From Folioceros fuciformis (taxonomy: Eukaryota): 34,039 nt of DNA. Positions within the stretch are counted from its first letter, which is position 1. Every line of letters starts with the position of its first letter. Below the pieces are notes generated by a model. The model had not been told where the DNA came from. It did no database searches and was given only the letters and a program-made list of their open reading frames with translations. Location of the stretch: contig JBNGIO010005966.1 of the NCBI GenBank assembly GCA_049999805.1, forward strand, positions 1 through 34,039, read 5' to 3'. Positions 6,376 to 23,850 of the stretch are shown piece after piece. The position numbers and the translations under genes were made by a program.

Positions 6376-6744
6376 TCAAAATTGATGCAAATCAAACAAA
6401 GGCTAGTTACAAATGGTCTGAATGTAATGTAGATTCTGAAAGTTATCCTTATGGTCATCACGCCTTGTTCTGCATCGGCTGTCACAACTTGTAGACCTCA
6501 AACCATTGCACGAGTCTATCCACAATTCAGGCCGACATGATGGGCCCAAGCCCGATTCTGGCCTGCCTGGCGTTGGGAGACTAATCCGACCGTCTGCGGC
6601 CATAATTCGGTCGCCCACCTGGAGTATCCCGTCTTGCGATTGAGATCTAGCCGCCCTCGGCTCTGGATCTGGCCACACCACCAAGAGAGCCGGATTAGAC
6701 CGTCTTGCGAATGCCTGCAGGCTCCGGATCCGGCCGCACCACCT

Positions 6745-6834
6745 GCCCGCGCCTGTGCCCACGCCCGTGCCCGTGCCCACGCCCACGCCCGTGCCCACGC
6801 CCACGCTTGTGCCCACGCCCACGCCCGTGCCCGC
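6745..6834. repeat. Hexamer microsatellite (GCCCAC/GCCCGT) x15 in copia leader
   Basis: 15 consecutive hexamer units read directly. Confidence 0.95.
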
Positions 6835-7082
6835 ATCTACACCTGGCGCGCCTAGCGGCCCTAGCGTCCCGTGCGCCTCGCGAGCCGTGGCTGGCGCCCT
6901 ACGCTGCGCGGCCTGAGCACGACGGGGCTCGAGACCCCTGCACCCCGGGCAGCAGAGTTGCCGCACACTGGCCCCCGGGATGCTGCTCTCACTCTAGAGC
7001 CTTCCTCACGCCTTTGTGCATCTTGTCCACATCACCTGCAGCCATCACCCTCTTGCTCCACAATCCTAGCTCTAATACCAAT

Positions 7083-7325
7083 TGAAGGATCGTTAGGGGG
7101 GCCACATGATGAAGGAGGAGAGGAGAAAGCAAGGTCTCTCACACACTCACTATTGCAAGAGAGCTGAAGAGGGTATTTATACCCTCTAGAAGAGCTCCCA
7201 AGGAAGCTTCACAAGAAGCTTCCTAAAGATTAGCTTAAGCTAATCTAAACAAATGATACTTAACTAGACACTAATCTTAGACTAAACACATTAGTCTAAG
7301 TACATTGGGCTTTAATAACCCTACA
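7083..7325 (-). repeat. Copia 5' LTR (left copy, 243 bp)
   Basis: Mirror of 11155-11397 with TG...CA ends on the minus strand; followed by PBS tggtattagagc at 7080-7069. Confidence 0.93.
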
Positions 7326-7339
7326 TCATTTAAATATCC

Positions 7340-7498
7340 ATGGAGATGTTCTTATCTATTCTTCCTTCAATTTTGCGCAATTGACAGCCGTGGATAGTCA
7401 CTTATTCTCTAATTAGATAATTGACTCTAGAGCATCTTTCTATGTTACTCCGCATAGGGAGTGGTTTAGCACCTATGATGATGCTACTAGGAAAGGAT
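7340..7498 (+). mobile_element. Isolated fragment of the same copia family's protease region, opposite orientation to the adjacent element
   Basis: atggagatgttcttatct...gataattgactctagagcatctttc...ctactaggaaaggat aligns with 12939-13093 (DGDVLI...WIIDSGASFHVTPHR), with substitutions. Confidence 0.9.
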
Positions 7499-7943
7499 TA
7501 TGCAACTCTTTGCCTTGATTTGTCTTCCTTACACAACTTAAATGTGTCTACCACATATAGGTATGTCTTACGTACAAGAATCCGGAGTATGGGTTAATAT
7601 AAGATTGCTGGATTTTTGAATTATAAATCCAATACAAGATAAATTATTGCCTTGGGAATGAAGTCTTCATTTTGACAAAGAGATTGGAAATCCTAGCCAC
7701 TCTAAGACTTGTAGTAACAACCCTCAAGAGGGCAAAAAATGCATGAGTCTAACCCCTAGCTTCCTAGTGCACTTAGAATTCAATAATCTAGGGTATGAAA
7801 GGGCCTATCTACCACCTATGTCGAAGATGTTGCTTACATAAGAACACTCGTTATTTCCATTGCTCATCATCTTGAGAGGTGGGTCAATGACCAAATTCTC
7901 CAATCTCCAAGCCAATGTGCACCAATTACAATTGAATAGCATA

Positions 7944-8375
7944 TTAATGACCTCTTTGATAACATTTTCGTTTTGTTTGTTTTGCTCGTGTTTTTTGGCA
8001 GTTGACAATGGATGGGGCTTGCACTCTAGAAGTTAGTACCTTGGTGTCGCAAATAAAAACCTTCACTGGTCCATCCACTTGCTCATGCTTCTTACCTTGT
8101 ATCTTGAGCACCATTTGCTTTAGAATGAAGGTCCATATGCTTTCGCAATATCGGTAGTTATCTACTATGCCTTTCAAAGTTATCTTGGAGGGGACTATAT
8201 GCTTTAGGGCCTTAGCGATAGACTTGTCAAATTGCCTCAAAACTTTCATTGCAAGATCAGGCGAGATATAGCCTCTCTCCACAAGCTCACTTAATGATTC
8301 AATCAAGCATTTTCCAATTGTGGAATGACGGTAGATCTCCAATGATTCTACATCACTCTCCTCTTTCCGATTCAT
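7944..8375 (-). CDS. TFIIA-gamma: Divergent intronless transcription initiation factor IIA gamma (small subunit)-like protein, copy 1 (143 aa from first ATG)
   Basis: IYRHSTIGKCLIESLSELVERGYISPDLAMKVLRQFDKS...KG...YRYCESIWTFIL...VKVFICDTK matches the plant TFIIA-gamma pattern LYRRSTIGMCLTETLDEMV..G.LSPELAIQVLVQFDKS...YRFCDNVWTFIL...VKIVACDSK. The track start is TTG; the first ATG is at 8375. Confidence 0.85.
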   Translation of the reverse strand: MNRKEESDVESLEIYRHSTIGKCLIESLSELVERGYISPDLAMKVLRQFDKSIAKALKHIVPSKITLKGIVDNYRYCESIWTFILKQMVLKIQGKKHEQVDGPVKVFICDTKVLTSRVQAPSIVNCQKTRAKQTKRKCYQRGH

Positions 8376-8839
8376 CACTCTGTGGGGAGTCTCCAACACC
8401 TCTGCGAACAAGATATCCAATTTAACTTTGAAGCAAAAAGGGAAGAGGAATTTGAAATATTATAATGGATGGAGCTTAAGCTAGTCACCTCTCGTACATG
8501 TATAGGCTTCAAGACTCGAACAGCTTCATAAAAGAATATTGAACAAAAACCTATTTTCGATCATATGGAACCTTTGAAATTCTCTTTCCTCGACTTGGCT
8601 TTTATATTGCTCCTTGTCAAGCCCAAAAAAATAATTGGAGTAATAATTTGGTGACCCGAAAGACTCGCTTTCGGAGTAAGTGGAAAATTTGTTTTTTTTT
8701 TTAATAATAAACGGTTGCTTTCAGCAACCCTGAGTTCTTTGGAGTAGAAGGCATGCCAAACCTCCAACCGTTCACTGGACGAATGGACTGACAGTAAGAA
8801 CGATCCGCTCAAGATCCGTAACCTAATATCATGCAGAAG

Positions 8840-9236
8840 TGTAGCGGCAAAACCCCGGGCACTGTTTGCCAACGGGTTCGACCTTTAGTGGCCACACTTA
8901 TCCCACTGTCGTTGAGACATTGGGTTTCATTCCCACGAAGGAGCGATGGGGTTCCTTACCGCTATGGATGGAGGGTCGGACTCAATCGACTTGATGACGG
9001 ATTCCAGGGATCCCCTCCAGCTCCGATTAGGCGTGGGACAGTCCTCGCTGTCCAGCAATCAACTGCACCTCTCTCGGTGCCCAGAAATGTGTTGAGGGTT
9101 TATATTAAACCCAACCTGGTTTAGTTTACCAAGGGTTGCTAACCCTAGTTTAAGAGATATATAAATTGTGTTTAAGTAACCTCTTTTATTATTAGAGCTT
9201 ATTGTAGTGTGCGATATACAAAGCTTCCGCTTTACA
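8840..9236 (+). mobile_element. Putative LTR (~397 bp) of a second, unrelated LTR retrotransposon; internal region truncated at ~9640
   Basis: Starts TGTAgcggc, ends cttccgctttACA and is followed immediately by a tRNA-iMet-type PBS. No second LTR in the window to confirm the 5' boundary. Confidence 0.65.
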
Positions 9237-9247: not shown

Positions 9248-10104
9248 GATGTTTAATGACTCTTAGATCGGATCCACACTGTACACTCTAGCACACAATG
9301 TACATCTGTCAATCTTGACAAGGTGTATAATTGTGTGCTGGAGCAAGTAGTTTAGATTTGTATTCTAAGATCAGTAGTTGTAGTGTTTTACAGCAATGAA
9401 AATGCGTTCACTACTCTACAAATGATTTTGGTCGGTGTGAGCAATGGCTCGAAGAGGCGGAGCATTTAGGCATCATGAAGGATTCCCCTCTCAGTTATCA
9501 AATCGCTCTAGTAGGGGTAGACTAAGGAGACCTCCACCAGTTCAGAGGAGATCCCCACCGCCAGTCAAGTGGGTTCAAGACTCTAGCTGGTTCTGCAACT
9601 GCGATCACGATTACTCCTCTCTGTGTAGGCGTGATTTACACTTCTGCATGATATTAGGTTACGGATCTTGAGCGGATCGTTCTTACTGTCAGTCCATTCG
9701 TCCAGTGAACGGTTGGAGGTTTGGCATGCCTTCTACTCCAAAGAACTCAGGGTTGCTGAAAGCAACCGTTTATTATTAAAAAAAAAAACAAATTTTCCAC
9801 TTACTCCGAAAGCGAGTCTTTCGGGTCACCAAATTATTACTCCAATTATTTTTTTGGGCTTGACAAGGAGCAATATAAAAGCCAAGTCGAGGAAAGAGAA
9901 TTTCAAAGGTTCCATATGATCGAAAATAGGTTTTTGTTCAATATTCTTTTATGAAGCTGTTCGAGTCTTGAAGCCTATACATGTACGAGAGGTGACTAGC
10001 TTAAGCTCCATCCATTATAATATTTCAAATTCCTCTTCCCTTTTTGCTTCAAAGTTAAATTGGATATCTTGTTCGCAGAGGTGTTGGAGACTCCCCACAG
10101 AGTG

Positions 10105-10536
10105 ATGAATCGGAAAGAGGAGAGTGATGTAGAATCATTGGAGATCTACCGTCATTCCACAATTGGAAAATGCTTGATTGAATCATTAAGTGAGCTTGTG
10201 GAGAGAGGCTATATCTCGCCTGATCTTGCAATGAAAGTTTTGAGGCAATTTGACAAGTCTATCGCTAAGGCCCTAAAGCATATAGTCCCCTCCAAGATAA
10301 CTTTGAAAGGCATAGTAGATAACTACCGATATTGCGAAAGCATATGGACCTTCATTCTAAAGCAAATGGTGCTCAAGATACAAGGTAAGAAGCATGAGCA
10401 AGTGGATGGACCAGTGAAGGTTTTTATTTGCGACACCAAGGTACTAACTTCTAGAGTGCAAGCCCCATCCATTGTCAACTGCCAAAAAACACGAGCAAAA
10501 CAAACAAAACGAAAATGTTATCAAAGAGGTCATTAA
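10105..10536 (+). CDS. TFIIA-gamma: Divergent intronless TFIIA gamma-like protein, copy 2 (identical translation to copy 1)
   Basis: Same motifs as copy 1; ATG at 10105; TATAA at 10016-10020; ~30-aa basic C-terminal extension. Confidence 0.85.
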   Translation: MNRKEESDVESLEIYRHSTIGKCLIESLSELVERGYISPDLAMKVLRQFDKSIAKALKHIVPSKITLKGIVDNYRYCESIWTFILKQMVLKIQGKKHEQVDGPVKVFICDTKVLTSRVQAPSIVNCQKTRAKQTKRKCYQRGH

Positions 10537-10981
10537 TATGCTATTCAATTGTAATTGGTGCACATTGGCTTGGAGATTGGAGAATTTGGTCATTGACCCA
10601 CCTCTCAAGATGATGAGCAATGGAAATAACGAGTGTTCTTATGTAAGCAACATCTTCGACATAGGTGGTAGATAGGCCCTTTCATACCCTAGATTATTGA
10701 ATTCTAAGTGCACTAGGAAGCTAGGGGTTAGACTCATGCATTTTTTGCCCTCTTGAGGGTTGTTACTACAAGTCTTAGAGTGGCTAGGATTTCCAATCTC
10801 TTTGTCAAAATGAAGACTTCATTCCCAAGGCAATAATTTATCTTGTATTGGATTTATAATTCAAAAATCCAGCAATCTTATATTAACCCATACTCCGGAT
10901 TCTTGTACGTAAGACATACCTATATGTGGTAGACACATTTAAGTTGTGTAAGGAAGACAAATCAAGGCAAAGAGTTGCATA

Positions 10982-11140
10982 ATCCTTTCCTAGTAGCATC
11001 ATCATAGGTGCTAAACCACTCCCTATGCGGAGTAACATAGAAAGATGCTCTAGAGTCAATTATCTAATTAGAGAATAAGTGACTATCCACGGCTGTCAAT
11101 TGCGCAAAATTGAAGGAAGAATAGATAAGAACATCTCCAT
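10982..11140 (-). mobile_element. Copia protease-region fragment (mirror of 7340-7498)
   Basis: Reverse complement of 7340-7498. Confidence 0.9.
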
Positions 11141-11154
11141 GGATATTTAAATGA

Positions 11155-11397
11155 TGTAGGGTTATTAAAGCCCAATGTACTTAGACTAATGTGTTTAGTC
11201 TAAGATTAGTGTCTAGTTAAGTATCATTTGTTTAGATTAGCTTAAGCTAATCTTTAGGAAGCTTCTTGTGAAGCTTCCTTGGGAGCTCTTCTAGAGGGTA
11301 TAAATACCCTCTTCAGCTCTCTTGCAATAGTGAGTGTGTGAGAGACCTTGCTTTCTCCTCTCCTCCTTCATCATGTGGCCCCCCTAACGATCCTTCA
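11155..11397 (+). repeat. Copia 5' LTR (243 bp), TATA box at 11299-11306
   Basis: TGtagggttattaaagcccaatg...cgatccttCA; homologous to 15951-16257. Confidence 0.93.
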
Positions 11398-11399
11398 AT

Positions 11400-11411
11400 T
11401 GGTATTAGAGC
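11400..11411 (+). promoter_or_regulatory. Primer-binding site (tRNA-iMet type)
   Basis: tggtattagagc, one mismatch to TGGTATCAGAGC, 2 nt after the LTR. Confidence 0.9.
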
Positions 11412-11645
11412 TAGGATTGTGGAGCAAGAGGGTGATGGCTGCAGGTGATGTGGACAAGATGCACAAAGGCGTGAGGAAGGCTCTAGAGTGAGAGCAGCAT
11501 CCCGGGGGCCAGTGTGCGGCAACTCTGCTGCCCGGGGTGCAGGGGTCTCGAGCCCCGTCGTGCTCAGGCCGCGCAGCGTAGGGCGCCAGCCACGGCTCGC
11601 GAGGCGCACGGGACGCTAGGGCCGCTAGGCGCGCCAGGTGTAGAT

Positions 11646-11735
11646 GCGGGCACGGGCGTGGGCGTGGGCACAAGCGTGGGCGTGGGCACGGGCGTGGGCG
11701 TGGGCACGGGCACGGGCGTGGGCACAGGCGCGGGC
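11646..11735 (+). repeat. G-rich hexamer repeat (GGGCGT/GGGCAC)n in copia leader
   Basis: Mirror of 6745-6834. Confidence 0.95.
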
Positions 11736-12104
11736 AGGTGGTGCGGCCGGATCCGGAGCCTGCAGGCATTCGCAAGACGGTCTAATCCGGCTCTCTTGGT
11801 GGTGTGGCCAGATCCAGAGCCGAGGGCGGCTAGATCTCAATCGCAAGACGGGATACTCCAGGTGGGCGACCGAATTATGGCCGCAGACGGTCGGATTAGT
11901 CTCCCAACGCCAGGCAGGCCAGAATCGGGCTTGGGCCCATCATGTCGGCCTGAATTGTGGATAGACTCGTGCAATGGTTTGAGGTCTACAAGTTGTGACA
12001 GCCGATGCAGAACAAGGCGTGATGACCATAAGGATAACTTTCAGAATCTACATTACATTCAGACCATTTGTAACTAGCCTTTGTTTGATTTGCATCAATT
12101 TTGA

Positions 12105-15100
12105 ATGATGACGTCCTCAGAAAACATTATGTTCAATATCGAGAAGCTAGATGGTACTAACTTCCCGTTCTGGAAAGAACAAGTGTATAATGTTCTAGTG
12201 CAGAAAAAGCAGATCAAGCCCATAAAGTTGCTAGGTGTGAACATAACTGTTAGCATAACTCAGGATGAGTGGCATAATCTAGATGAACTTGCTAGATCTA
12301 CCATCATGCTAACATTGTCGAAGTTGGTCTACTTCAATGTGAAAGACAAGACCACAAGTTACGAGCTATGGCAAAAGTTGTGTGACTTGTATGAGAAGCA
12401 AAGTGCGGCTTCTTAGATGTACTGGTTGAAACACAAGGTGGACTTGAAGATGAAGGAAGGGACGAGGATGTCCGATCATATGAATGAGTTCAATACTATT
12501 TTCAGCCAGCTCTCATCTCAAGGTATCTCGTTCCCATATTCCGTGAGAGCTATGTTTCTGTTGGTCACATTACCAGAGAGTTGGGACACCTTTCGTATAG
12601 CTCTGAGTAATTCCGCTCCTGCCAGTGGTCTCACCATTGTAAATGTAGAAGGTAGCCTGTTAACAAAAGAGGTAAACAGAAAGAATATGGAACCTTTGAA
12701 AGGTTGCAACGCCCTCATGGTGAGAAGAAGGTTCACTACAAAGAGGAAGCAAAAGGAGCGAAGCCTTTCCCGTAGCAAATCTCGTAGTCGTAACAATGTT
12801 GAGTGTTACCATTGTCACAAAAAGGGTCACATCAGAAGGGACTACGAGAAGTTCAAGAAGGACAAAGGAAAGGAGAGAAGCATAACGACAACAAGGCAAG
12901 TCCAAGTATCAAGCCTGATGAGATGAATTTTGTTGATGATGGAGATGTTCTTATCTCATCTTCCTTAGATTCTACACAATTGACAGCCGTGGATAGCCAC
13001 TTATTCTCTAATTGGATAATTGACTCTGGAGCATCTTTCCATGTTACTCCGCATAGGAAGTGGTTTAGCACTTATGATGCTACTAGGAAAGGATGTGTTT
13101 GGCTTGGAAATAACTACGCATGCGAGATTGCGGGCGTTGGTGATGTGCAGCTGAGGTTTGACAACGGATCTTCATTCATATTGAAGGATGTTAGGCATGT
13201 TCCGAAGTTGACAAAATGCATGATTAGCGCAGGGCAGTTGGATGACGCTGGCTGTGGCATTGTCAGTTAGGACATGTCTCAAAAAGGAATGAAGATCTTA
13301 TCTCGTTTTGGTTACATCCTTGGTTTTGACTTCTCCGATTTCTCCGTGTGCGAGCACTGTTTGTATGGGAAACAAATGAAATCACCACATGGAGCAAGAG
13401 GTAAACACAAAAGTAAACCTCTTGAATTGGTTCACAGTGACGTTTGTGGACCTATCATAGGCCCACTACATCATTAGGCGGTGCATCCTATTTTGTCACT
13501 TTCATAGATGATTTCTCACGCAAGGTGTGGGTTTATCCTTTGAGGAAAAAGGATAATGTTCTGACAGTGTTTCAAAAATTCGTCACCCTTGTGGAGAATC
13601 AGTCTAGCCTTCGACTAAAGTGTCTAAGGACAGACAATGGTGGAGAGTACGTTTCAAAGGCTTTCTAGTCATTCTGTGATTTCAAGGGAATCAAGAGAGA
13701 ATTGACTGCCCCGTATACTCCTCCCAAGAATGGTGTGGCTGAATGGATGAATAGGACCATCTAGGAGAGGATGCGTAGTTTGTTGTCAAACTTTGGATTG
13801 CCTAACGGATTTTGGGCAGAAGCAGTGTCTACTGCGGTGCATCTTATTAACATATCTCCTAATATGGCTGTGGATGAGCAGGTTCCAGAGGAGCTGTGGT
13901 CTGGAAAGAAGCCGTCTTACAAGCATCTACAAGTGTTTGGCTGCGAGGCATGCTACCATGTTCCAAAGGAGTTTCGGGACAAGTTGGCACCCAAGTCCAG
14001 AAAACGTATTTTTCTTGGCTATGGTGACTCTGGTGAGATGGGATATCGTTTATGGGATCCAGAAGCCAAGAAGGTTGTTCGCAACAATGATGTGTTCTTC
14101 AATGAGAACAAAATGCACAAGAAGCCTACTCCAACTGTGGAGGTGTGACGGGTGGTCTTCCAAGAAGATGGACTTGACCGTCACGGGCGGGTTGAACGTC
14201 TTGATGTGCAGGAACCCATTCCTCCACTTGTAGAAGAAGAGAGAGTGCAACTAGCTCCGGTCGAGGCGCCTGTGCTTCGTAGGTCAGGAAGGATTTCACG
14301 TCCTCCTGATAGGTATGTTGCATCTCTTGATTATGTCATGTTGACGGATTGTGGGGAGCCCTCTTGTTACAAAGAGGCCATGTTAGTGACTCACAAGGTT
14401 AAGTGGGAGAAGGCGATGCAGTCGCAGATGAATTTGCTTCGTAAGAACCAAACTTGGGAGTTGGTTCGGTTGCCTAGGGATAAGAAGGCATTGCCATGCA
14501 AATGGGTGTATAAGATGAAGGTCATACCCCATGATGGCAAACCCAAGTACAAGGCACGATTGGTTGCTAAGGGTTTTAAGCAACAGCAAGGTGTTGACTT
14601 TGATGAGGTTTTCTCACCAGTTGTCAAAATGACCACTTTGCTATGTGTTCTTGCTCTGGTTGCGAGGAATGACATGGAACTTGTCCAGATGGTTGTGAAG
14701 TCAGCATTTTTGCATGGTGATCTCCAGGAAGAGGTATACATGCAGCAACCAGAGGGTTTCATTGAGAAGGGCAAAGAAAATCTGGTGTGCAGGTTAAAGA
14801 AGAGCCTTTATGGTTTGAAACAAGCACCTAGAGAGTGGTATTACAAGTTCCACTCATTCATGCTTTCTCAAGGCTACAAACGTAGCGATGAGGATCATTG
14901 CCTCTATACAAAGCAAGCTAAGGATGGAAGCTTGCTCATTTTGGTCCTTTATGTGGATGATATGCTACTTGCTGGGAATAACAGTGATGAGATTTCAGTG
15001 TTGAAGTCAAAGTTGAATGCTCTCTTTAACATGACAGACTTGGGAGAGGCTAGCCATATTCTTGGCATGCGTATTCGTTGAGATAGACATAAGCGTTTGC

Positions 15101-15903
15101 TTTACTTGTCTCAGACTGAATACATTAAGAGGGTGCTTCAACGTTTCAATATGGAGAAGGGGAAGGTCTTGAGTACTCCGTTACCTCCATATGTGAAACT
15201 TTCGAGCAAGGATTGCCCAAGCTCTGCGGAGGACAAAGCTAAAATGGAGAAGGTTCCATACTCATCAGCTGTAGGGAGTTTGATGTATGCCATGACTACT
15301 ACACGTCCTGACATTGCTTTTGCAGTGGGACCGGTTAGCAGGTTTATGTCAAACCCTGGTAAGAAGCATTGGGAGGCAGTAAAAGAAGTTATGAGGTATT
15401 TAAATGGTACAAAAGCTTTGTGCATATGTTTTGGTAGTAAAAATGCCTATATCGTTGGATATACGGAGGCTAATTATGTAGAGGATATGGACAAAAGAAG
15501 GTCTACATCAAGTCATGTCTTCATGTGCACTGGAGGGGCAATCTCATGATGATCTCGTTTGCAATTGTGCATAATGCTATCTACCACAGAGGCCGAGTAT
15601 GTTGCAACGACTGAGGCTTGCAAGGAAGCCATGTGGCTTGCTCGTTTAGTGGGAGACTTGGGGATCAAGGTTGAGCTGTCAGTGTTGCATTGTGATAGCC
15701 AGAGTGCTATCCAATTGGCAAAGAATCCAGTGTTTCATGCAAAGACCAAACATGTGGAAGTGAAGTATCACTTCATTCGAGAGGTGTTGGAAGACAAGAG
15801 GGTACAGCTTGTCAAAGTTCACACCAATCAGAACCCTGCAAATATTCTTACCAAGGGCTCTCTACGGAGCAATTCGCACAAGCTCGGACACTCATGGGCC
15901 TGA
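12105..15903 (+). pseudogene. Copia gag-pol, disrupted
   Basis: IEKLDGTNFPFWK (gag N-terminus), CYHCHKKGH, WIIDSGAS, VHSDVCGP, LRTDNGGEY, LKKSLYGLKQAPR, YVDDMLL, CDSQSAI, AKTKHVEVKYHFIRE. In-frame stops e.g. 12414, 13666, 14146, 15079, 15547, plus frameshifts. Confidence 0.96.
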
Positions 15904-15939
15904 GGTAGACCACTCTCCTACGAAGGTAAATTGGTCTTT

Positions 15940-15950
15940 AAGTGGGAGGT
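15940..15950 (+). promoter_or_regulatory. Polypurine tract
   Basis: aagtgggaggt immediately before the 3' LTR. Confidence 0.85.
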
Positions 15951-16257
15951 TGTAGGATTATTAAAGCCCAATGTGCTTAGACTAATGTGTTTAGTCTAAG
16001 ATTAATGTCTAATTAAGTATCATTTGTTTAGATTTGCTTAAGCTAATATTTAGGAAGCTTATTGTACAGCTTCCTATGAGCTTCTTGTGCAGCTTTCAAT
16101 GAGCTTCTTGTGAAGCTTCCTTAGGAGCTCTTCTAGAGGGTATAAATACCCTCTTGAGCTCCCTTGCAATATAGAGAGTGACCTTGCTTTCTCCTCTCCT
16201 CCTTCATCATGTGGCTCCCCTCCTCCGTCATCATGTGGCTTCCCTAGCGATGCTTCA
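15951..16257 (+). repeat. Copia 3' LTR (307 bp) with internal duplications
   Basis: TGtaggattattaaagcccaatg...cgatgcttCA; three ~22-bp gagcttcttgtg.agctt units and a duplicated tcctcc.tcatcatgtggct segment. Confidence 0.92.
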
Positions 16258-16774
16258 ACACCTATAATTGAAAACTTCATTTTTAATCTAGAAAACTTTC
16301 TTAAACATATTAACTTAACTGCAGGAGTGTGCTAGTCTACCGACACACCTGCACTTGAAATCTTCATTTCCAATCTAGAAAACTTTCTTAAACATGTTGA
16401 CTTAATTTCAGGGGGTACGCCGGTCTACCGATGCACCTGCACTTGAAAACTTTATTTTCAATCAAGCAAAATTTCTTTAAAACTCACTTAACTCTAGGAG
16501 TGAGCTGGTCTACCAGCACCCCCGTACTTGAAAAACTTCATTTTCAATCAAGAAAACTTTCTTAAACATACTCACTTAACTCCAAGAGTGAGCTGGTCTA
16601 CCGGCGCACTCGCACTTGAAAAACTTCATTTTCAATCAAGAAACTTTCTTAAACATTCTCACTTAATTCCAAGAATGAGTCAGTCTACCGATGCACTCGC
16701 ACTTGAAAACCTCATTTTTAATTAAGAAAATTTTCTTAAACATACTCAATTAACTGCACGAGCACGTCGATCTA
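16258..16774. repeat. Tandem array, ~87-bp unit x ~6
   Basis: ttgaaa recurs at 16268, 16355, 16443, 16528, 16616, 16703. Approximate consensus: gcacttgaaaacttcattttcaatcaagaaaactttcttaaacatactcacttaactccaggagtgagctggtctaccgacgcac. Confidence 0.95.
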
Positions 16775-16926
16775 GATACCTTTGTTTTCTAGAGGACCAT
16801 TTGAGTGACGATGGGTTCACTCATGGGCCCACATGTCTTTCATTAACCAATGTTAAAAGGTATGTGACTAAACACCTACTACAAAGCGCACAACACATCT
16901 AACTATGACTCCCTACCCTATGCTAA

Positions 16927-17026
16927 NNNNNNNNNNNNNNNNNNNNNNNNNNNNNNNNNNNNNNNNNNNNNNNNNNNNNNNNNNNNNNNNNNNNNNNNNN
17001 NNNNNNNNNNNNNNNNNNNNNNNNNN
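16927..17026. other. Assembly gap (100 N)
   Basis: Run of N. Confidence 1.
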
Positions 17027-17039
17027 CCTTCTCATCCAC

Positions 17040-17714
17040 TCATGAATCTTCCACATCTTCCTGATCGGATACAAGCCCCTCCCAAACCTGCTCTAGGGTT
17101 TTTTGTCCCGGCTCCAAGTCTTCGCTCGTCTTTCGACTCCGCCTCTTCGACGTTAGTAACACAACTTGTGCTGGGGAGCTGTCCCTTTCACTAATGCAAA
17201 CCTCCTTAGCCCAAAATTGGGATGGCCCTTGCTGATGCACATCGAATGTCACCTCCTCCTCTACATCTGATAGAACTTCATAGCCATGGATTTTGTGCGG
17301 GATATACACTACGCATCGCTTGTCTCCTTCAATCGCTACGCAGTTTTTACTAGTAAGCAATGCCGCCAACACTGTAGTGCCGCTATCAAAACAAGCATCG
17401 ACAACCCATTCCCCCTCTTTACAGAAGCTGTGGATAAGCCTGTCCAGCAATCCCGGGGGCCTGTGATATGGGCAAGCAACTCGTTTTTCATGAGATAGGT
17501 AAACATGTTTCTTCACCATAGTGTCATGTGCGATGATGGACCTGCCCCTATTGAAGATTCCCTGGTGTTGCCCTGACATCATAGACGTGCGGCCCTTACT
17601 GCTTGGCTCCTCCAGGCACTATGCAACAATTGTGTACTCCACAGTTTCAAAACATCCTTGATCATTTGAAATGTTTGTCTTACCCCGGACAAACGAAAGC
17701 AGACCACCCCTTTG
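17040..17714 (-). pseudogene. Beta-class N4-cytosine/N6-adenine DNA methyltransferase (N6_N4_Mtase family), C-terminal part, probably inactivated
   Basis: CPYHRPPGLLDRLIHSFCKEGEWVVDACFDSGTTVLAALLTSKNCVAIEGD aligns with the family pattern HPTQKP..LL.RLI...S.EGD.VLDPF.GSGTT..AA....RN.IGIE.D (motifs X-I-II). The frame extends upstream across a TAG at 17621-17619 as LSFVRGKTNISNDQGCFETVEYTIVA*. No motif IV (DPPY/SPPY) found. Confidence 0.8.
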
Positions 17715-17727
17715 CTAATTGTAAGTA

Positions 17728-17929
17728 AATGTAATGTTTGGTAGAAGTAAGAGTTGCAGTTCTTGAAATGCTCAAAGGTAAGCTCATGAAGTCAATCATC
17801 ATGTTGTGCACTCCATCACTCACAAATCTTTTTGTGTTGTTTGTTTAGGACTTTAGTGTTGATTATAACTGAATGTAATGTTTGGTAGAGGTAAAAGTTG
17901 TGGTGGTTGCAATGCTCAAGGGAGAGCTC
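17728..17929. repeat. Two diverged 58-bp direct repeats (17728-17785, 17872-17929)
   Basis: aatgtaatgtttggtaga.gtaa.agttg....ttg.aatgctcaa.gg...agctc occurs twice, 144 bp apart. Confidence 0.8.
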
Positions 17930-18755
17930 TCTACCTGTGAGTGCCACTCCATGTTGTCCCCAATATAAATGGTTGCTGTGTAATTGCTTTGCTATGGGTA
18001 TGTGCTGTTGCTCTCAAGAAACTCTTAGGTTGACCATGATGATAGGGCATGACTCGACTGAAGTTCTTGCTTTCGGATGCAAACCCACATCAACAGCCCA
18101 AGAAATAACTTACTAGCTACAAGTTGAACCCGAAAAAGTTGCCTAAGATAGAGTTCAAATAGTTGCCTAAGAGGATGAGGAGAGGATGACTTTGTTTGTA
18201 AAGGAGAGTATGTCTCGTGGTGCTAGAGTAATTGAGATGTGATTGTGGGCATCTCATGTTGCCATTGGTGAAACCAATCCGTGGATAATGGTCTGTAATT
18301 GTTTATTGCCATTGTAGGGCAACATGATGTTGAATTCGGAGCTACACGGAAGGCATTGTGGCAAGAGTATGCAGCTCAAACCTAGTCGACAGCAGCGATC
18401 TCATAGTAGGAAACATGATGTTACATGAATGATCATGTGCAAGCATTCGACTGTGCATGAATGAGCATGGCATAATACAAGCAAGATAAATCTTGATGAC
18501 ACGTACCTCCCTTCCTTCCTTGCTTAGAGGAGCAAATAATCAAGCACGCAATCTCCAAGATACGAAGAGGAGGATTCATTCCATCAAAGCTGAAACGAGA
18601 TTCGCAACTCTACTGATTTATCGCATACAAAAATTCCCCTACATAAAATCGTTTCAAAATTCAGCTAAATATTAAGGTTCAACCTCTATTGTATGACAAA
18701 TGTGGTATTTGTACATAACACGAAGTCCAAACATGCGTTTCTGAGAAGGGCACCC

Positions 18756-18855
18756 NNNNNNNNNNNNNNNNNNNNNNNNNNNNNNNNNNNNNNNNNNNNN
18801 NNNNNNNNNNNNNNNNNNNNNNNNNNNNNNNNNNNNNNNNNNNNNNNNNNNNNNN
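18756..18855. other. Assembly gap (100 N)
   Basis: Run of N. Confidence 1.
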
Positions 18856-19233
18856 TCTCATCATTCCGGAAATTCGGCACATCTTGAAGCGTCTCATGGC
18901 GTCCAGACCTTGATGGACTCTCTCCACGGGGTCCTTCCGAACAAAGTGCCGCCGTCATCCCCGACGCCACGGTGGAACGCAGCGTTTCAATAATAATTTC
19001 AACTAGCTATTCGCCATCCTTTCCCGTCCTCTGGGGCAAACACAACCTCGATACAGGAGATGCTGCGCGGTGGAGGACGGACGTTCGGCTTGCATCTCCA
19101 CCAACAGATGCATAACTATAACAAGGCTGCAGCCAATCAGCCTGTTGCGACAGGAACATCAATTTGCTACCTCACAACAGTCGAAAGTAGAATTGAGGCA
19201 ATTCTGCACTTTTCTCAATTGCACTCGTTTGAA

Positions 19234-21627
19234 CTAGGCCATCTCTCTCAACTTCCTTATCAGGGCATCCAAGGACTTCTTTTTTCCAGCTTGGCGAGAA
19301 GACCTGTTGCCGAAAAGTCTTTCAGGGAGGTCTCTGTATTTCTCAGCGACCAAAATAACCTTCCTGAAATCCAATGCGAAGTAGTTCTTTTCCCTGACAA
19401 CGACATTGAGGTATAACTCCGGGTTATTGCTAGACAACAGCGCAACCAGCTGTCGGGCCTCTGCTAGGCATTGCTTCAGATTTGTGGCACCTGCCACCTT
19501 GTCTAAGCCACTGCTTTGGTGTTTATCCTCAGCAAAGGACTCCAAAACCCTTAAGTCCGCATCTATTCCCATTACTGCATATATATTGAAGCGTTTCACC
19601 GAATCACTCAAAAAGACATGCACGATGGAGTCAGAAATATGCTTCAGCACACCACTGATGACTTTCTCGAAGGCGTCAAGAGGGAGAATTTCCATAGCCG
19701 TAGCAGCAAGCGTTTCAAGGTAGATCATGACCTCATTCAAATACTCATTACCTGTTTGTGGGAGGTCATCCGGGGTCCAATTGATGTTGTCAGTCAGAGA
19801 CATGAACTCATCCACCTTGGATTTAACAAGCTTCAACATGAGCTCATGAGCTTCAGCCTGGGCCTCCCTTAGAACCGTCCTAGCCCCTAAAGAGCCATGC
19901 GGACCCTCAACTAAGCGCATAGGCACACCACATAATTTGCCAGCATGGCCTGCAAAAAAGGTACATGCTCTTTCCAGTACGGTCATATTCGCAGCAATCT
20001 GCATTGCGTGAGACACTCCAAGATTTGAATTTCTGATTAACTTCAGCAGAGCTTCATTGAGTACACTGATGAGCAACTTGTCTAAGTACTTCTTCACCAA
20101 ATCGTAGTAGTCCATGTGGCCCCCATATGAAAGGAAGCTAACGGAATCCTCGATAAATGCTCTAACAATGCGACAGCAATCGGGAACGGACCCTGAAAAT
20201 GGAGCAATATAAGGGAATGCAGGCATGGTATCGACTGTTTGCAGGTGGAAAGCCAGCACATTCATGTTGTATTCATACTCCTTCCGCATTACCATCTGCT
20301 CGAACTTGTCATTCATAAGCACCTCATTAATCTGCCGCTTGTTGTCATTCAGCAGGATTTCGTGGTACTTATCCCGCATTGTGTCAAGGACATCCAACAA
20401 AGGACTGACCTGATATCCATACCTCCGGAGAGTGGCACCTACCAGGCTCACGTAGTCCTTCACAAGAAGCAGATGGTTTGCCGTCTGCATTCGAGAAAAC
20501 TGCTCCTCCATCACACTGTTCATACGGCTGATAGCCGTTTCCCACAGGCTCTCTACCCGTGATGCAGAAATGAGACCACCTGCAGACCTCAACACCCTAT
20601 CTTCCACGATAAAAAAACCGGCCAGCTGAGCAAAATATGTCTGATGAGACTCTAAAAACGGCTGACCCGATGATGTCTGCAAGTCTGAGCTCAACTGCAG
20701 TTGCCGGTTCTTATAGTAGTGCTCCTTAAACTGCTCCTGCAGCCCCAAGCAAGTGTTGATATAGTGAGCTCTGTACACAGGGGTTAAATCAAACTTCAGC
20801 AGTGCATCATCCTCATCGATGTCCTCCATTTCCAGCATATAGACACACTCCTTGGCACCGGAACGACTTTGCTCTTCTGCTTGCCTCTGCCTGCCCCTGA
20901 GACCCTCCTCTCGTTGCCGCGCGGAGGACGCTTGTCCGATGGCCTGCTGGCCGACCTCCCTAGACGCCGTCCTGATCTGCACAAGCCAGTCATTAAACTC
21001 CATGTTTACCCGTCGCTCAATGTGAGCCCTACACACCGGAATCTGGCGCTCCAGCAGGACCCGCAGAGCGCGTGCCGGCACCTGTTGCAGAAAATCCCTT
21101 TCCAAGCTATCAATGGTCTTCAGAGCAGGATAGTAGCGATCATTAGCGATGTAGTCATTCACTTTGACGCACAACTCCGCAACTCTGATGCAGATCTTCA
21201 AGGCATCCACAGCCTTGTTCAAATTCCGCTTGATCCCGTGCGACTCAATCAACTCATCCATCTTTCCCAGAAGCGCGTTTCCTACTTCCTGCATCTGAGA
21301 ATTCTCCCTGGATAGCCCATTCTTGAGCTCATCAGCATCCACCAGGACGTAGCGCAGCTCATCTACAGCATGAATGAACTCCTCGTAGTGCAGCTTACAG
21401 AGATCTTCAATTTCAAGCTCCCTCTTCTTGGCGAAATTTCGCAGTTGATGCACCAGGGTCTCGGGTTTTCCACTCTCAAACGCATTCCTGACCAGGGGAC
21501 CTAAGTCCTCGCCGTTAGCTATGGCGGAAGCCAGAGCAGAATCATCAACTCCCAGCGGTCCGCCATCTCCTTTCTCCCCGTTCTCCGTGGCCACACCGGC
21601 TCTCTTTGCTTTCAACATCATCTCCAT
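19234..21627 (-). CDS. SEC15: Exocyst complex component SEC15 (797 aa, single exon)
   Basis: Long uninterrupted ORF with plant SEC15 motifs NGEDLGPLVR.AFESGKPE, IEDLCKLHYEEFI.AVDELR, FDLTPVYRA, FPYIAPFS.SVPDCCRIVR.FIEDSV, KKKSLDALI.KL. Confidence 0.95.
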   Translation of the reverse strand: MEMMLKAKRAGVATENGEKGDGGPLGVDDSALASAIANGEDLGPLVRNAFESGKPETLVHQLRNFAKKRELEIEDLCKLHYEEFIHAVDELRYVLVDADELKNGLSRENSQMQEVGNALLGKMDELIESHGIKRNLNKAVDALKICIRVAELCVKVNDYIANDRYYPALKTIDSLERDFLQQVPARALRVLLERQIPVCRAHIERRVNMEFNDWLVQIRTASREVGQQAIGQASSARQREEGLRGRQRQAEEQSRSGAKECVYMLEMEDIDEDDALLKFDLTPVYRAHYINTCLGLQEQFKEHYYKNRQLQLSSDLQTSSGQPFLESHQTYFAQLAGFFIVEDRVLRSAGGLISASRVESLWETAISRMNSVMEEQFSRMQTANHLLLVKDYVSLVGATLRRYGYQVSPLLDVLDTMRDKYHEILLNDNKRQINEVLMNDKFEQMVMRKEYEYNMNVLAFHLQTVDTMPAFPYIAPFSGSVPDCCRIVRAFIEDSVSFLSYGGHMDYYDLVKKYLDKLLISVLNEALLKLIRNSNLGVSHAMQIAANMTVLERACTFFAGHAGKLCGVPMRLVEGPHGSLGARTVLREAQAEAHELMLKLVKSKVDEFMSLTDNINWTPDDLPQTGNEYLNEVMIYLETLAATAMEILPLDAFEKVISGVLKHISDSIVHVFLSDSVKRFNIYAVMGIDADLRVLESFAEDKHQSSGLDKVAGATNLKQCLAEARQLVALLSSNNPELYLNVVVREKNYFALDFRKVILVAEKYRDLPERLFGNRSSRQAGKKKSLDALIRKLREMA

Positions 21628-23850
21628 CGCATCAAGCTTCTACTAGGAGGCGACAAATATGCGACATGGAACCGCACCCTCCTTTGACGACCGGGCACAA
21701 CAACATGAGACACAGTGCACGAGCTGAGAGGTGCAATGCAGTAATTATTAGGGTTTCTGCTTTATTACATATAATAAAAACTGTACGACCCGATTGCCCC
21801 GAATGCCCTCAGCTGTGAGAGAAGAGGGTCGCACGAAGGTCACCAATTTCCGATAATAGAAGGAAAATGGGTTCCAGACCCGATCTCCTAATGAGCCTTT
21901 TGAAGATGTTCATTTGCAGGAGGGACAGACGGATGGTGAAGCCATCCAGCCCACCACTGCCGTGCATCAGTGTCCCGCTATCAGGGTCCTCAATCCCGCG
22001 AAATCTACAGAACAGGAAGGCAAGTAGACGCATTCGCACTTGCTCATACTGCACCTGTCAAAAGCTGAGGGTCTACGTAGGTGTGTATCACGAATTGCTG
22101 GAAGCAACAAATGGACATTACCGAGACGCTGTTCATGAGGAGGGACGATTCGGCTGTGTACGGGGCCGTACAAGACTAGCTCTGTTCGACGAAAGTTACC
22201 AGAACATCTCTAGAACGTCTTCCCTCTCCACCGGCATTTACTTATGCCAGATGGCGCAAGCGGCCTGGTTGGTTGGTGTGGAGGACTGTCATTTGTTCAT
22301 CTGGACAGAACCCACCATAAGTGCTACAGTTGCAGCCTGGAATGCCACTCGGGCTCTCATCAGAGATTGACTGCGGTTGTGGTTCCCCTGCTTGAAGGAA
22401 TACAAGCCTGCTAGCAAAACCCCGGCTGTAGCTAGCGCCCCTGCTCAGACATCCCATCACCGAATAAACGAGAAACGACTTCAGTCCCTTCAGAAGCTGC
22501 CAGACATTGCTAAAAGACCCGGCGATGCGCAGGACGAAACAGGAAGCACACCTATTGGAACAAGGGGATTCCGACGGTGCCTTGAATCAAACATATCCTC
22601 GCTCTCCTCCATGGTATCAGGGCCCAGGCCGCTCTTAGCTATTTGAGAGTTCAGATTCTACGCCTGCAAATTTCACAACACAGAAAACACCGCCACCGGC
22701 CCATTCCCAAAGGACACCAATCAGGAGACATCAGGCAAAGAGGAGTTGCAGAAAGAGAAAACCCTAACATACGATAGTGCACGACAGAGGTTTCGCGATA
22801 CACATATGTACGAATCAAGCCTCCAAGATCCCTAGGAGGAGATCGAAGAAGGAAAGATGTTCCAAGGCAACAACTACAGGAGCCAACGGCCGTTCGGCGG
22901 CAAACCAGCCCCAAACAACAAGAAGAAAGAAGCATCAGATTCACCCGGATGCCAGAAGTGCGCCTGCACTTCTTTTGCCATGCAAGGACGGGCCGTGCGG
23001 ATGGACCAAGGCTGCTGCCGAGTGCTACATACCCAGCCGGCGCCCAAAACACCAACTCTCTCGCCGCCCCCGCCTCCGCGGCCTCGAAGATGGAAGATCA
23101 AGTCTCAAAGCCCCGATCCACCGGTGCCCCGATCAGTGCCTCCAACCACCCCGGTGAAGCCGAATCTGAAAGCGTTGCGGCGGAGAAGCCCAATCCCAAA
23201 CCCCAGGCTTCTGCATCAGCAGTCAGAAAGCAACGGCAGCGGCACCCTGGTACGTAAACCCTGCCCGATCCACACGTGTCAGTGCATCAAGATGGACACA
23301 GCGCAGCAGCAAAGCTCCAAGCAGCGCAAACAGCAGCCATGCGCAAAGTGACGTGCGGAGAGGGGAGACGACGCAAAACCCCAACCTTGGCAAGATAGTC
23401 TTCTTCTCACTGCTGCGGGCGTGGCGAGTGGTGCAGAAAGAGCGGCGTCTCCGCAGCAGGCAAAGAAAGGAGGCTAAACGACGCGAGCAAGCGTGGCAGC
23501 AGCTGTGGAGGATGATCGTGCGCTGCCGAGGCCAAGCCCGGGGCGTGAGGCGCAACGAACAAGGCCTGGCGCGGCCATGGCATTCTCTCCCTCATTACGC
23601 TGCGTACTGGTGGGGATGACTGGCTGCGCCACCGTCGCGTCCGGTCGCCCGGTTGCCGAGCTTATGCATGTTCTAACTCGACTCCACCGCTCTCTGAGAC
23701 ATACACTGATTCCATGCCATGCATCAGATTGCACCATCACCACGACCGTGGCTAGAAATCTTGGACTCCAACACAACTCTTCTACCATCTTCATCTCGAC
23801 ACTGTACAAAGGAAGGGAAATTCCGCCTCCCCGTCGATGAAAGAAAGAAC

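Follow-up and report, generated by a model that had tools for sequence, protein, structure and literature searches.

What is a bacterial-looking methyltransferase frame doing in the genome of Folioceros fuciformis, to which family does it belong, and could it still work? These questions are raised by a minus-strand open reading frame at 17043-17618 of the window, by which we mean the whole stretch of 34,039 bases that was analysed. The frame matches PF01555 (N6_N4_Mtase) with 35.0 bits (E 1.9e-8; gathering cut-off 26.7), and the match spans ORF residues 49-101 and positions 161-214 of the 221 in the profile. A preliminary description of the locus, made from the sequence, had called it the relic of a beta-class amino-methyltransferase and not of a C5 enzyme, and had proposed this profile check; a match above the curated cut-off, well outside what chance would produce, supports that class. 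The relic against NCBIfam gave sub-threshold matches only (CcrM, 24 bits for a cut-off of 830), and on its own it matched the structure sequence 9c3u with 20 bits (E 0.0038). No Rfam match was returned for 15900-19300. Its 192 open codons are many for a fossil and count against reading the frame as a pseudogene.

A profile of 12 relatives delimits the homology core at 17187-17552 (minus strand; 97.0 bits, iE 4.4e-31, profile positions 211-322 of 380). Together with the PF01555 match, it identifies a PF01555-type domain of which the C-terminal third is present, with motifs X, I and II and an 'LxDxEEE' stretch. Motif X is contained in the minus-strand sequence PYHRPPGLLDRLIHSF; its remnant PYHRP (17457-17471) stands where the family has PYQKP, and the Q and K of that motif, which none of the 12 relatives lacks, are replaced by H and R. 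The motif I remnant, DACFDSGTT (17373-17399, family D-x-x-S-G-S-G-T), reads C-F-D-S-G-T for the F/S-x-G-S-G-T expected of a SAM-binding motif, the first glycine being replaced by an aspartate encoded by the GAT codon at 17385-17387. This residue, G110, is a glycine in 12 of 12 relatives and lies one G>A step from the codon found here, just as the GGT>GAT change proposed earlier would have it. Motif II, CVAIEGD (17322-17342), aligns to RNCVAVE.D of the relatives. By translation, 17043-17186 encodes an acidic/basic low-complexity tail that ends at the TGA at 17040-17042; acidic low-complexity C-terminal tails are also present in the relatives. The positions first assigned to the three motifs are correct, and the ...FETVEYTIVA segment, the in-frame TAG at 17619-17621 and the tail are all present as had been stated.

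The relatives of this fragment were sought in an exhaustive phmmer search of 1.84 billion representatives, which returned 87 matches with E<=1e-3, the best at 39% identity. Thirty of these proteins were looked up and seven carry an organism name, all from streptophytes: four from Chara braunii, two from Riccia sorocarpa and one from Ginkgo biloba. Because only 7 of 30 are named, 'streptophyte' describes the named members and not the range of the family. In a word-indexed protein search with the relic, none of the 375 'longer'-length and none of the 33 'near'-length candidates was scored; the family alignment gave four proteins in the same kind of search, of which two were new. Motif IV had been suggested as the place to read the specificity of intact copies, and in the relatives it is neither SPPY nor DPPY/NPPY: all 13 proteins of the PYQKP type in which the region is present have D-Φ-P-[Y/H/R]-G, with S at the first position in none of the 13.

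Prokaryotic sequences are more distant. Among 80 loci from prokaryotic genomes, the best reached 58 bits with the family profile and matched in the C-terminal part only (positions 562-629 of 702), against 97-106 bits for the relic. A phage collection of 50,697 records held a single match, at 31.7% identity over 43% of the ORF. In a tree of 69 rows, 26 prokaryote-like rows with 'HPTQKP' were separated (SH-aLRT 92) from 34 'PYQKP' rows, the relic and eight fragments, the latter being sequences without the PYQKP motif region. On the PYQKP side, the relic has a long branch (1.26) and groups in no starred clade. Judged by its sequence, the relic is thus a member of a eukaryotic family marked by PYQKP and by a non-canonical D-Φ-P-[Y/H/R]-G, and the label 'prokaryote-type' that it was first given does not hold, its closest relatives being eukaryotic, with Chara, Riccia and Ginkgo as the named ones. 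Word matching in the open-access literature found no description of this family. Databases already label its proteins 'DNA methylase N-4/N-6 domain-containing'.

Conservation within the family also shows how much the copy in the window has lost. Six of 13 near-invariant family columns are kept in the relic and seven are changed (W10R, Q84H, K85R, S98C, G110D, R123K and R141K); among the latter, Q84, K85, G110 and R123 do not vary in any of the 12 relatives, and W10, S98 and R141 are near-invariant. The family's D-Φ-P-[Y/H/R]-G motif IV is absent from the relic, and the coding strand of 17027-18755 contains no motif IV word of the type (D/N/S)-P-P-(Y/F/W). In a six-frame profile search of all 34,039 bases, we found no N-terminal half or other family piece; neither the N-terminal 'IRxP...GGxHSxEA...HN' module nor the 'ELSLxEM' region of the family occurs in any frame of the window. 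The 'dead copy' of the preliminary description is therefore borne out, with only the C-terminal third present and no motif IV in contig or window. The G>A decay that had been read into it is not specific to the relic, which has a CpG o/e of 0.63 where neighbouring genes have 0.55-0.65. Differences between the relic and its paralogues are C>T or G>A in 8 of 14 listed cases, unpolarised; a C>T/G>A decay signature was dropped, given that the relic and its neighbours agree in CpG o/e.

Family membership, the truncation, the loss of conserved residues, the host linkage and the paralogues described below are directly supported. The relic is very probably a non-functional, 5'-truncated pseudogene fragment of a eukaryotic PF01555 family, integrated in a land-plant nuclear genome. 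Its parent would be a multicopy, beta-class amino-methyltransferase-like gene of eukaryotes with introns in some members, of which the relic would represent the last third, with motifs X, I and II and with the acidic tail; the part of the gene before motif X has presumably been lost from this copy. With that part lost, the glycine of the SAM loop mutated and the invariant Q and K replaced, the fragment should be unable to bind the cofactor normally or to catalyse, and would do nothing today. The parent family, on this reading, would descend from phage- or plasmid-type ParB_N-methyltransferase fusions, and an intact member would be a SAM-dependent DNA methyltransferase of the N6-adenine type.

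The TAG at 17619-17621 (minus strand) calls for separate discussion: it may be a nonsense codon, or its AG may once have belonged to a splice acceptor (ttgttgcatAG|TG). The in-frame segment upstream of it, QRGG...TIVA (17622-17714, minus strand), is collinear with the W-x-K-x-N block of the family when aligned with MAFFT and by eye, and reading through the TAG gives 105.6 bits with the 12-relative profile. Taken alone, however, the 31 residues of 17622-17714 score -2.4 bits with the family profile, and shuffles reach 0.4 bits (500 shuffles, a score being returned by 251). At the TAG column of the MAFFT alignment, the relatives have C, A or Y. As no homology can be demonstrated upstream of the TAG and the relatives have these residues there, the TGG>TAG change inferred earlier is unsupported. 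An alignment by eye of the TAG to a conserved aromatic residue was rejected in view of the -2.4 bits of the upstream segment.

The relic sits on a contig of 1,729 bases between two gaps of 100 N. The gap at 18756-18855 is bridged by an independent contig from another study (run X3; 3,158 nt, depth 73.9), which carries 18561-18755, then 95 letters, then 18856-19600; the gap at 16927-17026, on the 3' side of the relic, is unbridged by the listed contigs. Upstream of the relic and on the same strand lies an intronless host gene for the exocyst subunit Sec15 (19234-21639, minus strand; PF04091 Sec15_C 311.9 bits, PF20651 171.5 bits). The flank at 17715-18755 is single-copy-like when its run X1 depth is set against the Sec15 region, and is devoid of family homology in the profile search. 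Contig depth in that run is 7-10 over 17636-18755, compared with 11 for the region of Sec15. The stretches 17518-17960 and 17931-18755 are chained by Logan contigs. A direct repeat with a spacing of 144 nt is found at 17713-17785 and 17857-17929.

The relic itself has diverged paralogues. Contigs that differ from it at 12-15 positions per 120-190 nt cover 17027-17513, which supports for this host the multicopy state suggested earlier. Over 17016-17635, four of five bins have a summed depth of 22-58 and the fifth, 17264-17387, has 6.3; the multicopy signal ends near 17635, close to the end of homology. Paralogue contigs from runs X1 and X2 carry, at 17463, the letter that gives the consensus Q84; in the tail region of a paralogue contig, eight of ten listed changes are nonsynonymous, one of them creating a stop.

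Several other readings must be weighed against a pseudogene fragment. As the TAG may be a splice acceptor, it is formally conceivable that an expressed, spliced methyltransferase gene has its last exon at 17043-17618 and its 5' exons elsewhere: ttgttgcatAG|TG resembles an acceptor, the ORF is open for 192 codons, introns occur in some family members and the similarity upstream of the TAG is insignificant. Yet no frame of the window, including 16 kb upstream on the strand of the relic, holds a piece coding for the N-terminal part or motif IV, and the space directly upstream is filled, on the same strand, by Sec15 and its flanking sequence. Moreover, four residues invariant in all 12 relatives are changed, together with W10, S98 and R141, and paralogue copies contain stops, most of their changes being nonsynonymous. 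We therefore hold a live exon to be very improbable. Contaminant or mis-scaffolded foreign DNA, which the preliminary description had named as a result that would refute it, might be suspected of a short contig bounded by N gaps and bearing a domain typical of bacteria and phages. The contig from a different study nevertheless ties the right end of the relic contig to the host Sec15 flank, the depth is that of the host gene and the Logan contigs chain across the region, while the best relatives are eukaryotic and the best phage match is the distant one given above. Foreign origin of this kind was consequently rejected and can be taken as almost certainly wrong.

The two remaining readings concern origin. 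Within the pseudogene reading, and compatible with it, the fragment could be a 5'-truncated processed retrocopy or a gene piece captured by a transposon. The multicopy signal stops by the end of homology with single-copy-like sequence beyond it, and the relic is without an intron at motif I, where three family members (L003, L005 and L050) have one. Against this, a fourth member, L001, likewise has none there, so that the missing intron is not diagnostic, and the N gap at 16927-17026 hides the 3' end, at which a poly-A or a transposon terminus would be expected. We regard such an origin as possible but rather unlikely. The other reading sees the relic as horizontally acquired from bacterial restriction-modification enzymes, akin to DN4MT1 and N4CMT, and as the pointer to a 4mC (or 6mA) system. 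It draws on a Pfam family common to all these enzymes and on DN4MT1 as the published case of such an enzyme working in a land plant (10.1101/2021.02.12.428880). In addition, the consensus Q84 survives in at least one paralogue, and so better copies may exist. The family profile, however, scores 33 bits with the N4-cytosine enzymes 8s9m/8s9n (1boo: 12.8 bits, E 0.31) and distinctly more with N6-adenine enzymes: 59 bits for 5HEK, 50 for 8URK, 48 for CcrM 6PBD, 44 for 1G60 and 43 for 1EG2. The solved structures considered were DpnA-type 5HEK/5HFJ, M.BceJIV 8URK/9C3U, CcrM 6PBD, M.MboIIA 1G60 and M.RsrI 1EG2. Motif IV of the kin, in 13 of 13, is also not (T)SPPY, and the matches in prokaryotic genomes, C-terminal only, stay at or below 58 bits. 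The 'rare horizontal acquisition' like N4CMT or DN4MT1 that was first proposed does not fit kin with D-Φ-P-[Y/H/R]-G in place of SPPY, and we judge it very improbable.

A pseudogene fragment of a eukaryotic family thus being the preferred reading, the family itself deserves description. In full-length members, a conserved N-terminal module with the core 'GGxHSxEA' is followed by a helical 'ELSLxEM' region, and this by the methyltransferase domain. In one genome, partly decayed copies of about 4.5 kb are dispersed, with 87-95% identity, sharp common ends and different flanks; five of six contain stops, and one copy (L009) is split by a plant-type LINE and has an LTR-retrotransposon integrase beyond its end. 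The dN/dS of family copies was 0.41-0.58 in five of six comparisons. The transposon-like spread that had been suggested is thereby seen for the family, in a genome other than that of the window. The ends of the 4.5-kb unit showed no terminal inverted repeat, and a long terminal repeat was not found either; apart from the interruption and flank of L009, the ORFs of six metagenome family loci contain no transposase, reverse transcriptase or recombinase domain. For these reasons, only the dispersed copies with shared ends stand behind the word 'mobile', and the parent family may spread either as a mobile unit or as one carried by transposable elements.

The N-terminal module of the parent family may be ParB-like. 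With hhalign, its likeness to phage ParB_N is weak, at a probability of 16% and an E of 0.0016, and the motifs stand in register: NPR, PIvV, GGHxR..A and DN in phages for IRxP, PFV, GGNHS.EA and HN in plants. A comparison with a protein atlas gave a phage ParB_N cluster at 0.91 for the module, and ParB_N was fused to PF01555 in 10 of 40 phage or prokaryote relatives scanned. The module matched nothing at E<=10 in Pfam, models of ParB_N and DUF3723 included, or in the PDB, and a scan of viral contigs with the module of one member gave no relative. Language-model features of the modules of two members, 39% alike, ranked DUF3723 clusters first in both, with a similarity of 0.96 (178 of 256 features shared) in one and 0.95 (182, 177 and 174 shared) in the other, values that come without alignment or E-value. 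DUF3723 (PF12520) is described as a conserved cargo gene of Starship giant transposons in fungi, travelling with mobile elements (10.1101/2021.12.13.472469). This likeness concerns the module of the parent family, which the fragment in the window does not have, and we treat it as a lead only.

From these comparisons, a wider proposal can be made, which we put forward tentatively and think rather improbable: an apparently undescribed mobile-like family would extend from stoneworts to gymnosperms and to the plant studied here, combining a ParB-/DUF3723-like module with a D-Φ-P-Y-G domain and perhaps deriving from a phage fusion, and its intact members would be active, SAM-dependent 6mA methyltransferases on their own or host DNA, or repurposed proteins in cases where DLPRG stands at motif IV. 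Such members might also exist in the genome studied here, given the paralogue that encodes the consensus Q84. Amino-type DNA methyltransferases are, in one account, usually said to be few in land plants (PMC4738411), and another treats Marchantia DN4MT1, the one studied case, as an isolated bacterial acquisition (PMC12344493). The lineage found here is a different one within PF01555, with members in a stonewort, a liverwort and a gymnosperm besides this plant. If the proposal is right, land plants would have a second, independent lineage of amino-methyltransferases beside DN4MT1. Should any member be active, it would bear on 6mA/4mC marks outside Marchantia sperm, on the manipulation of host epigenetic marks by mobile elements and on the entry of phage ParB-methyltransferase fusions into eukaryotes. 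The fragment itself would be an ordinary pseudogene without consequence for its host, of value as a pointer to the family.

How does this family compare with known systems? Like the N6-adenine enzymes, it belongs to PF01555, with the permuted order that puts motifs X, I and II on the C-terminal side; one of these enzymes, M.BceJIV, reportedly methylates adenine N6 in GTWWAC (PMC11380664). It differs from them in PYQKP for HPTQKP, in D-Φ-P-Y-G for DPPY, in a long N-terminal extension and in its introns. Identity to them is about 30% and is limited, in the relic, to motifs X-I-II; the relic is without the catalytic half. Marchantia DN4MT1a/b and bdelloid N4CMT are reported as 4mC enzymes of the PF01555 type in eukaryotic genomes (PMC8885841; 10.1101/2021.02.12.428880); they are described as carrying an N4C-type (T)SPPY and grouping with bacterial N4C enzymes (10.1101/2021.02.12.428880). 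The relic's family, with its D-Φ-P-[Y/H/R]-G, is set apart from them by this motif, and its profile gives solved N4C enzymes lower scores than N6A enzymes.

Two further systems resemble the family in other respects. The Dam-like (DAM) domains carried by DIRS and LTR retrotransposons are amino-methyltransferase domains of prokaryotic derivation in eukaryotes. According to one report, mobile elements of eukaryotes have spread them, and their orphan copies are mostly degenerate remnants; the same report describes them as Dam-type with an Asn-Pro-Pro pocket, and DAM-carrying LTR elements as absent from Streptophyta (10.64898/2026.05.21.726589). In contrast to these domains, PF01555 is the sole Pfam match of the relic at E<=10, with no Dam-type family among the results, and the 4.5-kb unit of the family holds no reverse transcriptase or tyrosine recombinase, unlike DAM elements. 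The ParB_N-N6_N4_Mtase fusions of phages and plasmids share with the plant family an N-terminal ParB-type module, putative in the plants, followed by PF01555. The plant proteins have in addition a middle region of about 250 residues and introns, and their motif IV is D-Φ-P-Y-G, whereas viral loci have DPPY in 12 of the 14 aligned at that column.

The relic, a methyltransferase-like fragment on the minus strand, occupies a 192-codon open frame at 17043-17618, terminated by TGA at 17040-17042. Its translation gives a motif X region, PYHRPPGLLDRLIHSF, with PYHRP at 17457-17471, motif I (DACFDSGTT, 17373-17399), motif II (CVAIEGD, 17322-17342) and, after motif II in the same frame, an acidic/basic tail; an in-frame TAG (17619-17621) stands directly after ...FETVEYTIVA. 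When the sequence was re-read, all coordinates given for these features in the preliminary description proved correct. The assignment made there to the beta-class amino-methyltransferases was borne out by PF01555 (N6_N4_Mtase): the relic scores 35.0 bits (E 1.9e-8; curated cut-off 26.7), though only over the end of the domain that bears motifs X, I and II (profile positions 161-214 of 221). NCBIfam gave sub-threshold matches only (CcrM, 24 bits against a cut-off of 830), and the top solved structure by sequence was 9c3u (20 bits, E 0.0038). The similarity to methyltransferases exceeds chance.

An exhaustive phmmer search with the relic over 1.84 billion cluster representatives yielded 87 matches at E<=1e-3, while a single protein reached E<=1e-10; the best match was just 39% identical. 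Thirty of the 87 were looked up individually: the seven with a named organism were all streptophytes (Chara braunii, 4; Riccia sorocarpa, 2; Ginkgo biloba, 1), three were hypothetical proteins of metagenome source, and two clusters include a member labelled DNA modification methylase. The matches are of two kinds: those in which the prokaryotic HPTQKP precedes motif I and motif IV, if the region is present, is of DPPY type, and those with PYQKP and D-Φ-P-[Y/H/R]-G, which we call the PYQKP family. In the motif IV column, the 13 PYQKP-type sequences that hold the region, without exception, read DLPRG (4), DIPYG (4), DFPYG (3), DVPYG (1) or DIPHG (1), and viral loci read DPPYN (7), DPPYG (4), DPPYE, DLPYC or DLPYG (1 each).

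A profile built from 12 PYQKP-type relatives matched the window at 17187-17552 with 97.0 bits (iE 4.4e-31), with no second match in six frames of the 34,039 bases; a version of the relic read through the TAG scored 105.6 bits. Eighty prokaryotic loci, from a pattern scan across genomes of 185,579 prokaryotic species, reached at most 58 bits, with matches restricted to profile positions 562-629 of 702, where motifs X and I lie. In a quick maximum-likelihood tree of 69 rows and 107 columns, which omitted 23 of the 92 stored proteins (profile positions 235-295 uncovered, or fewer than 60 filled columns), one branch (SH-aLRT 92, not starred) separated the 26 HPTQKP rows from the relic, all 34 PYQKP rows and eight fragments lacking the motif region. 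On its long branch (1.26) the relic is without a well-supported sister; its pairing with a Chara clade (87) is too weak to rely on. As judged from these comparisons, it is a truncated PF01555 member and, within PF01555, one of the PYQKP family.

The preliminary description had called this copy dead, which its sequence confirms. Of the methyltransferase domain it holds the last third only; no motif IV-like word occurs on the coding strand of its contig, as had been noted, and profile searches found no N-terminal or catalytic part of the family anywhere in the window. An intronless Sec15 gene (19234-21639) lies upstream, in the same orientation. Among 13 columns near-invariant in relatives, six are kept (G48, K69, Y83, D106, S111, G112) and seven altered (W10R, Q84H, K85R, S98C, G110D, R123K, R141K). 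The proposed GGT>GAT change at 17385-17387 is well founded, because all 12 relatives have G in that column. A TGG>TAG origin of the stop found no such backing: with the family profile, the stretch of 31 residues before the TAG scores -2.4 bits, below the 0.4 bits reached by its own shuffles, and in a MAFFT alignment the stop column is C, A or Y in relatives. Equally, a former splice acceptor (ttgttgcatAG, with TG beyond the junction) may have supplied the AG of this TAG. Nor is there a special decay signature, the CpG o/e of the relic being 0.63 against 0.55-0.65 in neighbouring genes and the Copia element. The relic is an ordinary pseudogene fragment.

The relic lies on a contig of 1,729 bases flanked by 100-N gaps (16927-17026 and 18756-18855), and it might have been contaminant DNA. 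The stretch is present in three of the six listed sequencing runs, X1 and X2 from one sample and X3 from a different study. A 3,158-nt contig of X3 covers 18561-18755, continues with 95 letters replacing the 100 Ns and resumes at 18856-19600; it spans the right gap, so the right end of the relic contig is joined to the Sec15 flank. We rejected contamination. The window otherwise has the look of a land-plant nuclear region; its other content comprises a DYW-type PPR gene, GNAT, TFIIA-gamma, ClpP, a Copia element and an 87-bp array. In X1, a chain of contigs (17518-17960 and 17931-18755) has a depth of 7-10, against 11 over the Sec15 region. No listed contig bridges the left gap. The X3 contig (depth 73.9, guessed to be RNA) runs from the Sec15 coding region to about 670 nt beyond its stop codon, and the point where it ends, 18561, could be the 3' end of Sec15, with about 850 nt left between it and the relic.

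Summed depth was 22-58 in four of five bins of 17016-17635 and 6.3 in the fifth (17264-17387). The additional contigs over these bins differ from the window at 12-15 places per 120-190 nt and are diverged paralogues, in the very runs that hold the stretch, which upholds the earlier claim of a multicopy family. Translated from the listed differences, they encode at residue 84 the consensus Q of the family in place of the H of the window, together with L87, M90 and V80; in the tail, eight of ten listed differences are nonsynonymous, one being a stop.

Between the relic and the 87-bp array (16268-16762, 5.7 copies, 81% matches) lies an N gap. Contigs of X1 and X2 show many backward and skipping joints at the array and depths up to 251, which makes it a tandem repeat that is multicopy and variable in the host. 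Run X4, from the sample of X1, showed G>A at 51 of 56 places of change over 15900-17419 and resembles a bisulfite- or enzymatic-conversion library; in that case it could give a reading of methylation over the relic and the array. Elsewhere in the window, 2580-8843 and 9637-15900 form a perfect inverted repeat (6,264 nt, 100% complementary, 793 nt between arms), each arm containing an intronless TFIIA-gamma-like ORF (7944-8459 and 10021-10536) as well as the greater part of a Copia-type element (RVT_2). Arms that are identical over 6 kb point to either a fold-back artefact of the assembly or a palindromic duplication of very recent date.

In one AT-rich genome sampled in metagenomes (GC 0.30-0.39), the family behaves as a dispersed repeat. 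Seven loci there (L002, L003, L004, L007, L008, L009 and L025) are 87-95% identical, L004 and L007 being 99.7% alike, and a second group of loci is about 70% identical. Similarity among L003, L007 and L009 has sharp bounds near L007:152 and L007:4660, with unrelated flanks; the unit of about 4.5 kb encodes a single intron-bearing gene of N-terminal module plus methyltransferase. A plant-type LINE interrupts one copy, and a gypsy-type integrase lies nearby. Compared with L003, five of six copies carry stops, and dN/dS came out at 0.41-0.58 five times and at 0.98 once, a pattern that fits copies shed by a constrained source gene. Since no terminal inverted repeat at the unit ends, long terminal repeat or transposase domain was found in the dispersed copies, it is their dispersal with common ends that makes the family putatively mobile.

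Three parts are common to the full-length members (Chara, Ginkgo and translated metagenome loci): a conserved N-terminal module (IRxP...PFV..DP...Y.Y.V.GG.HS.EA...GLT..EA....HN), a middle region with ELSLxEM and the methyltransferase domain. The module matched nothing in Pfam or PDB at E<=10. Weak leads point to a ParB-type origin, namely ParB_N-PF01555 fusions in 10 of 40 scanned phage and prokaryote relatives, an hhalign comparison of the plant module with phage/prokaryote ParB_N (77 columns, ParB motifs in register; probability 16%, E 0.0016) and a phage ParB_N cluster at 0.91 in a protein atlas. The top rank in this atlas, which uses protein-language-model features, went to fungal DUF3723 clusters, at 0.96 for one member and 0.95 for the other, which shares 174-182 of 256 features with them (regions L003:1334-2182 and L001:1635-2639; the two members are 39% alike). 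This alignment-free likeness is a lead; the Pfam DUF3723 model did not match the module. In the text cited, Starship transposons are described as carrying DUF3723 as a conserved cargo gene (preprint 10.1101/2021.12.13.472469).

Among solved enzymes, the family profile scored best with adenine-N6 structures (5hek, 59 bits; 8urk, M.BceJIV, 50; CcrM, 48) and lower with N4-cytosine enzymes (8s9m, 33), and L050, a more distant, intron-bearing metagenome member, has a canonical DPPF; adenine-type ancestry is therefore the better guess from sequence. The DLPRG forms are without the motif IV aromatic residue. An intron at motif I is present in L003, L005 and L050 and absent from L001 and the window copy. 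L050:2044-3089 and L046, distant eukaryotic members, read DPPFGWN at motif IV and NPAQKS instead of PYQKP, and may, as intermediates, link phage-type enzymes to the D-Φ-P-Y-G forms.

With respect to known systems, the relic fails the tests for a working PF01555 enzyme. The preliminary description had likened it to DN4MT1 and N4CMT, a likeness that does not hold as far as it can be tested: these enzymes, in the published description cited, cluster with bacterial N4C enzymes and have (T)SPPY (preprint 10.1101/2021.02.12.428880, PMC8885841), whereas the kin of the relic have D-Φ-P-[Y/H/R]-G. Nor is it the Dam-type domain of DIRS/LTR elements; in the text cited, this domain has an NPP pocket, and DAM-carrying LTR elements are reported as absent from Streptophyta (preprint 10.64898/2026.05.21.726589). 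A 2015 survey of eukaryotic adenine methylases (PMC4738411) reports few such enzymes in land plants, and the portion cited here yielded no description of the PYQKP family; a word search of open-access text found no paper on it. The original observation is confirmed and its interpretation partly supported. The PYQKP family is a distinct, eukaryotic variant of a known enzyme kind, apparently undescribed, and as the parent family of the relic it is worth a proper survey.
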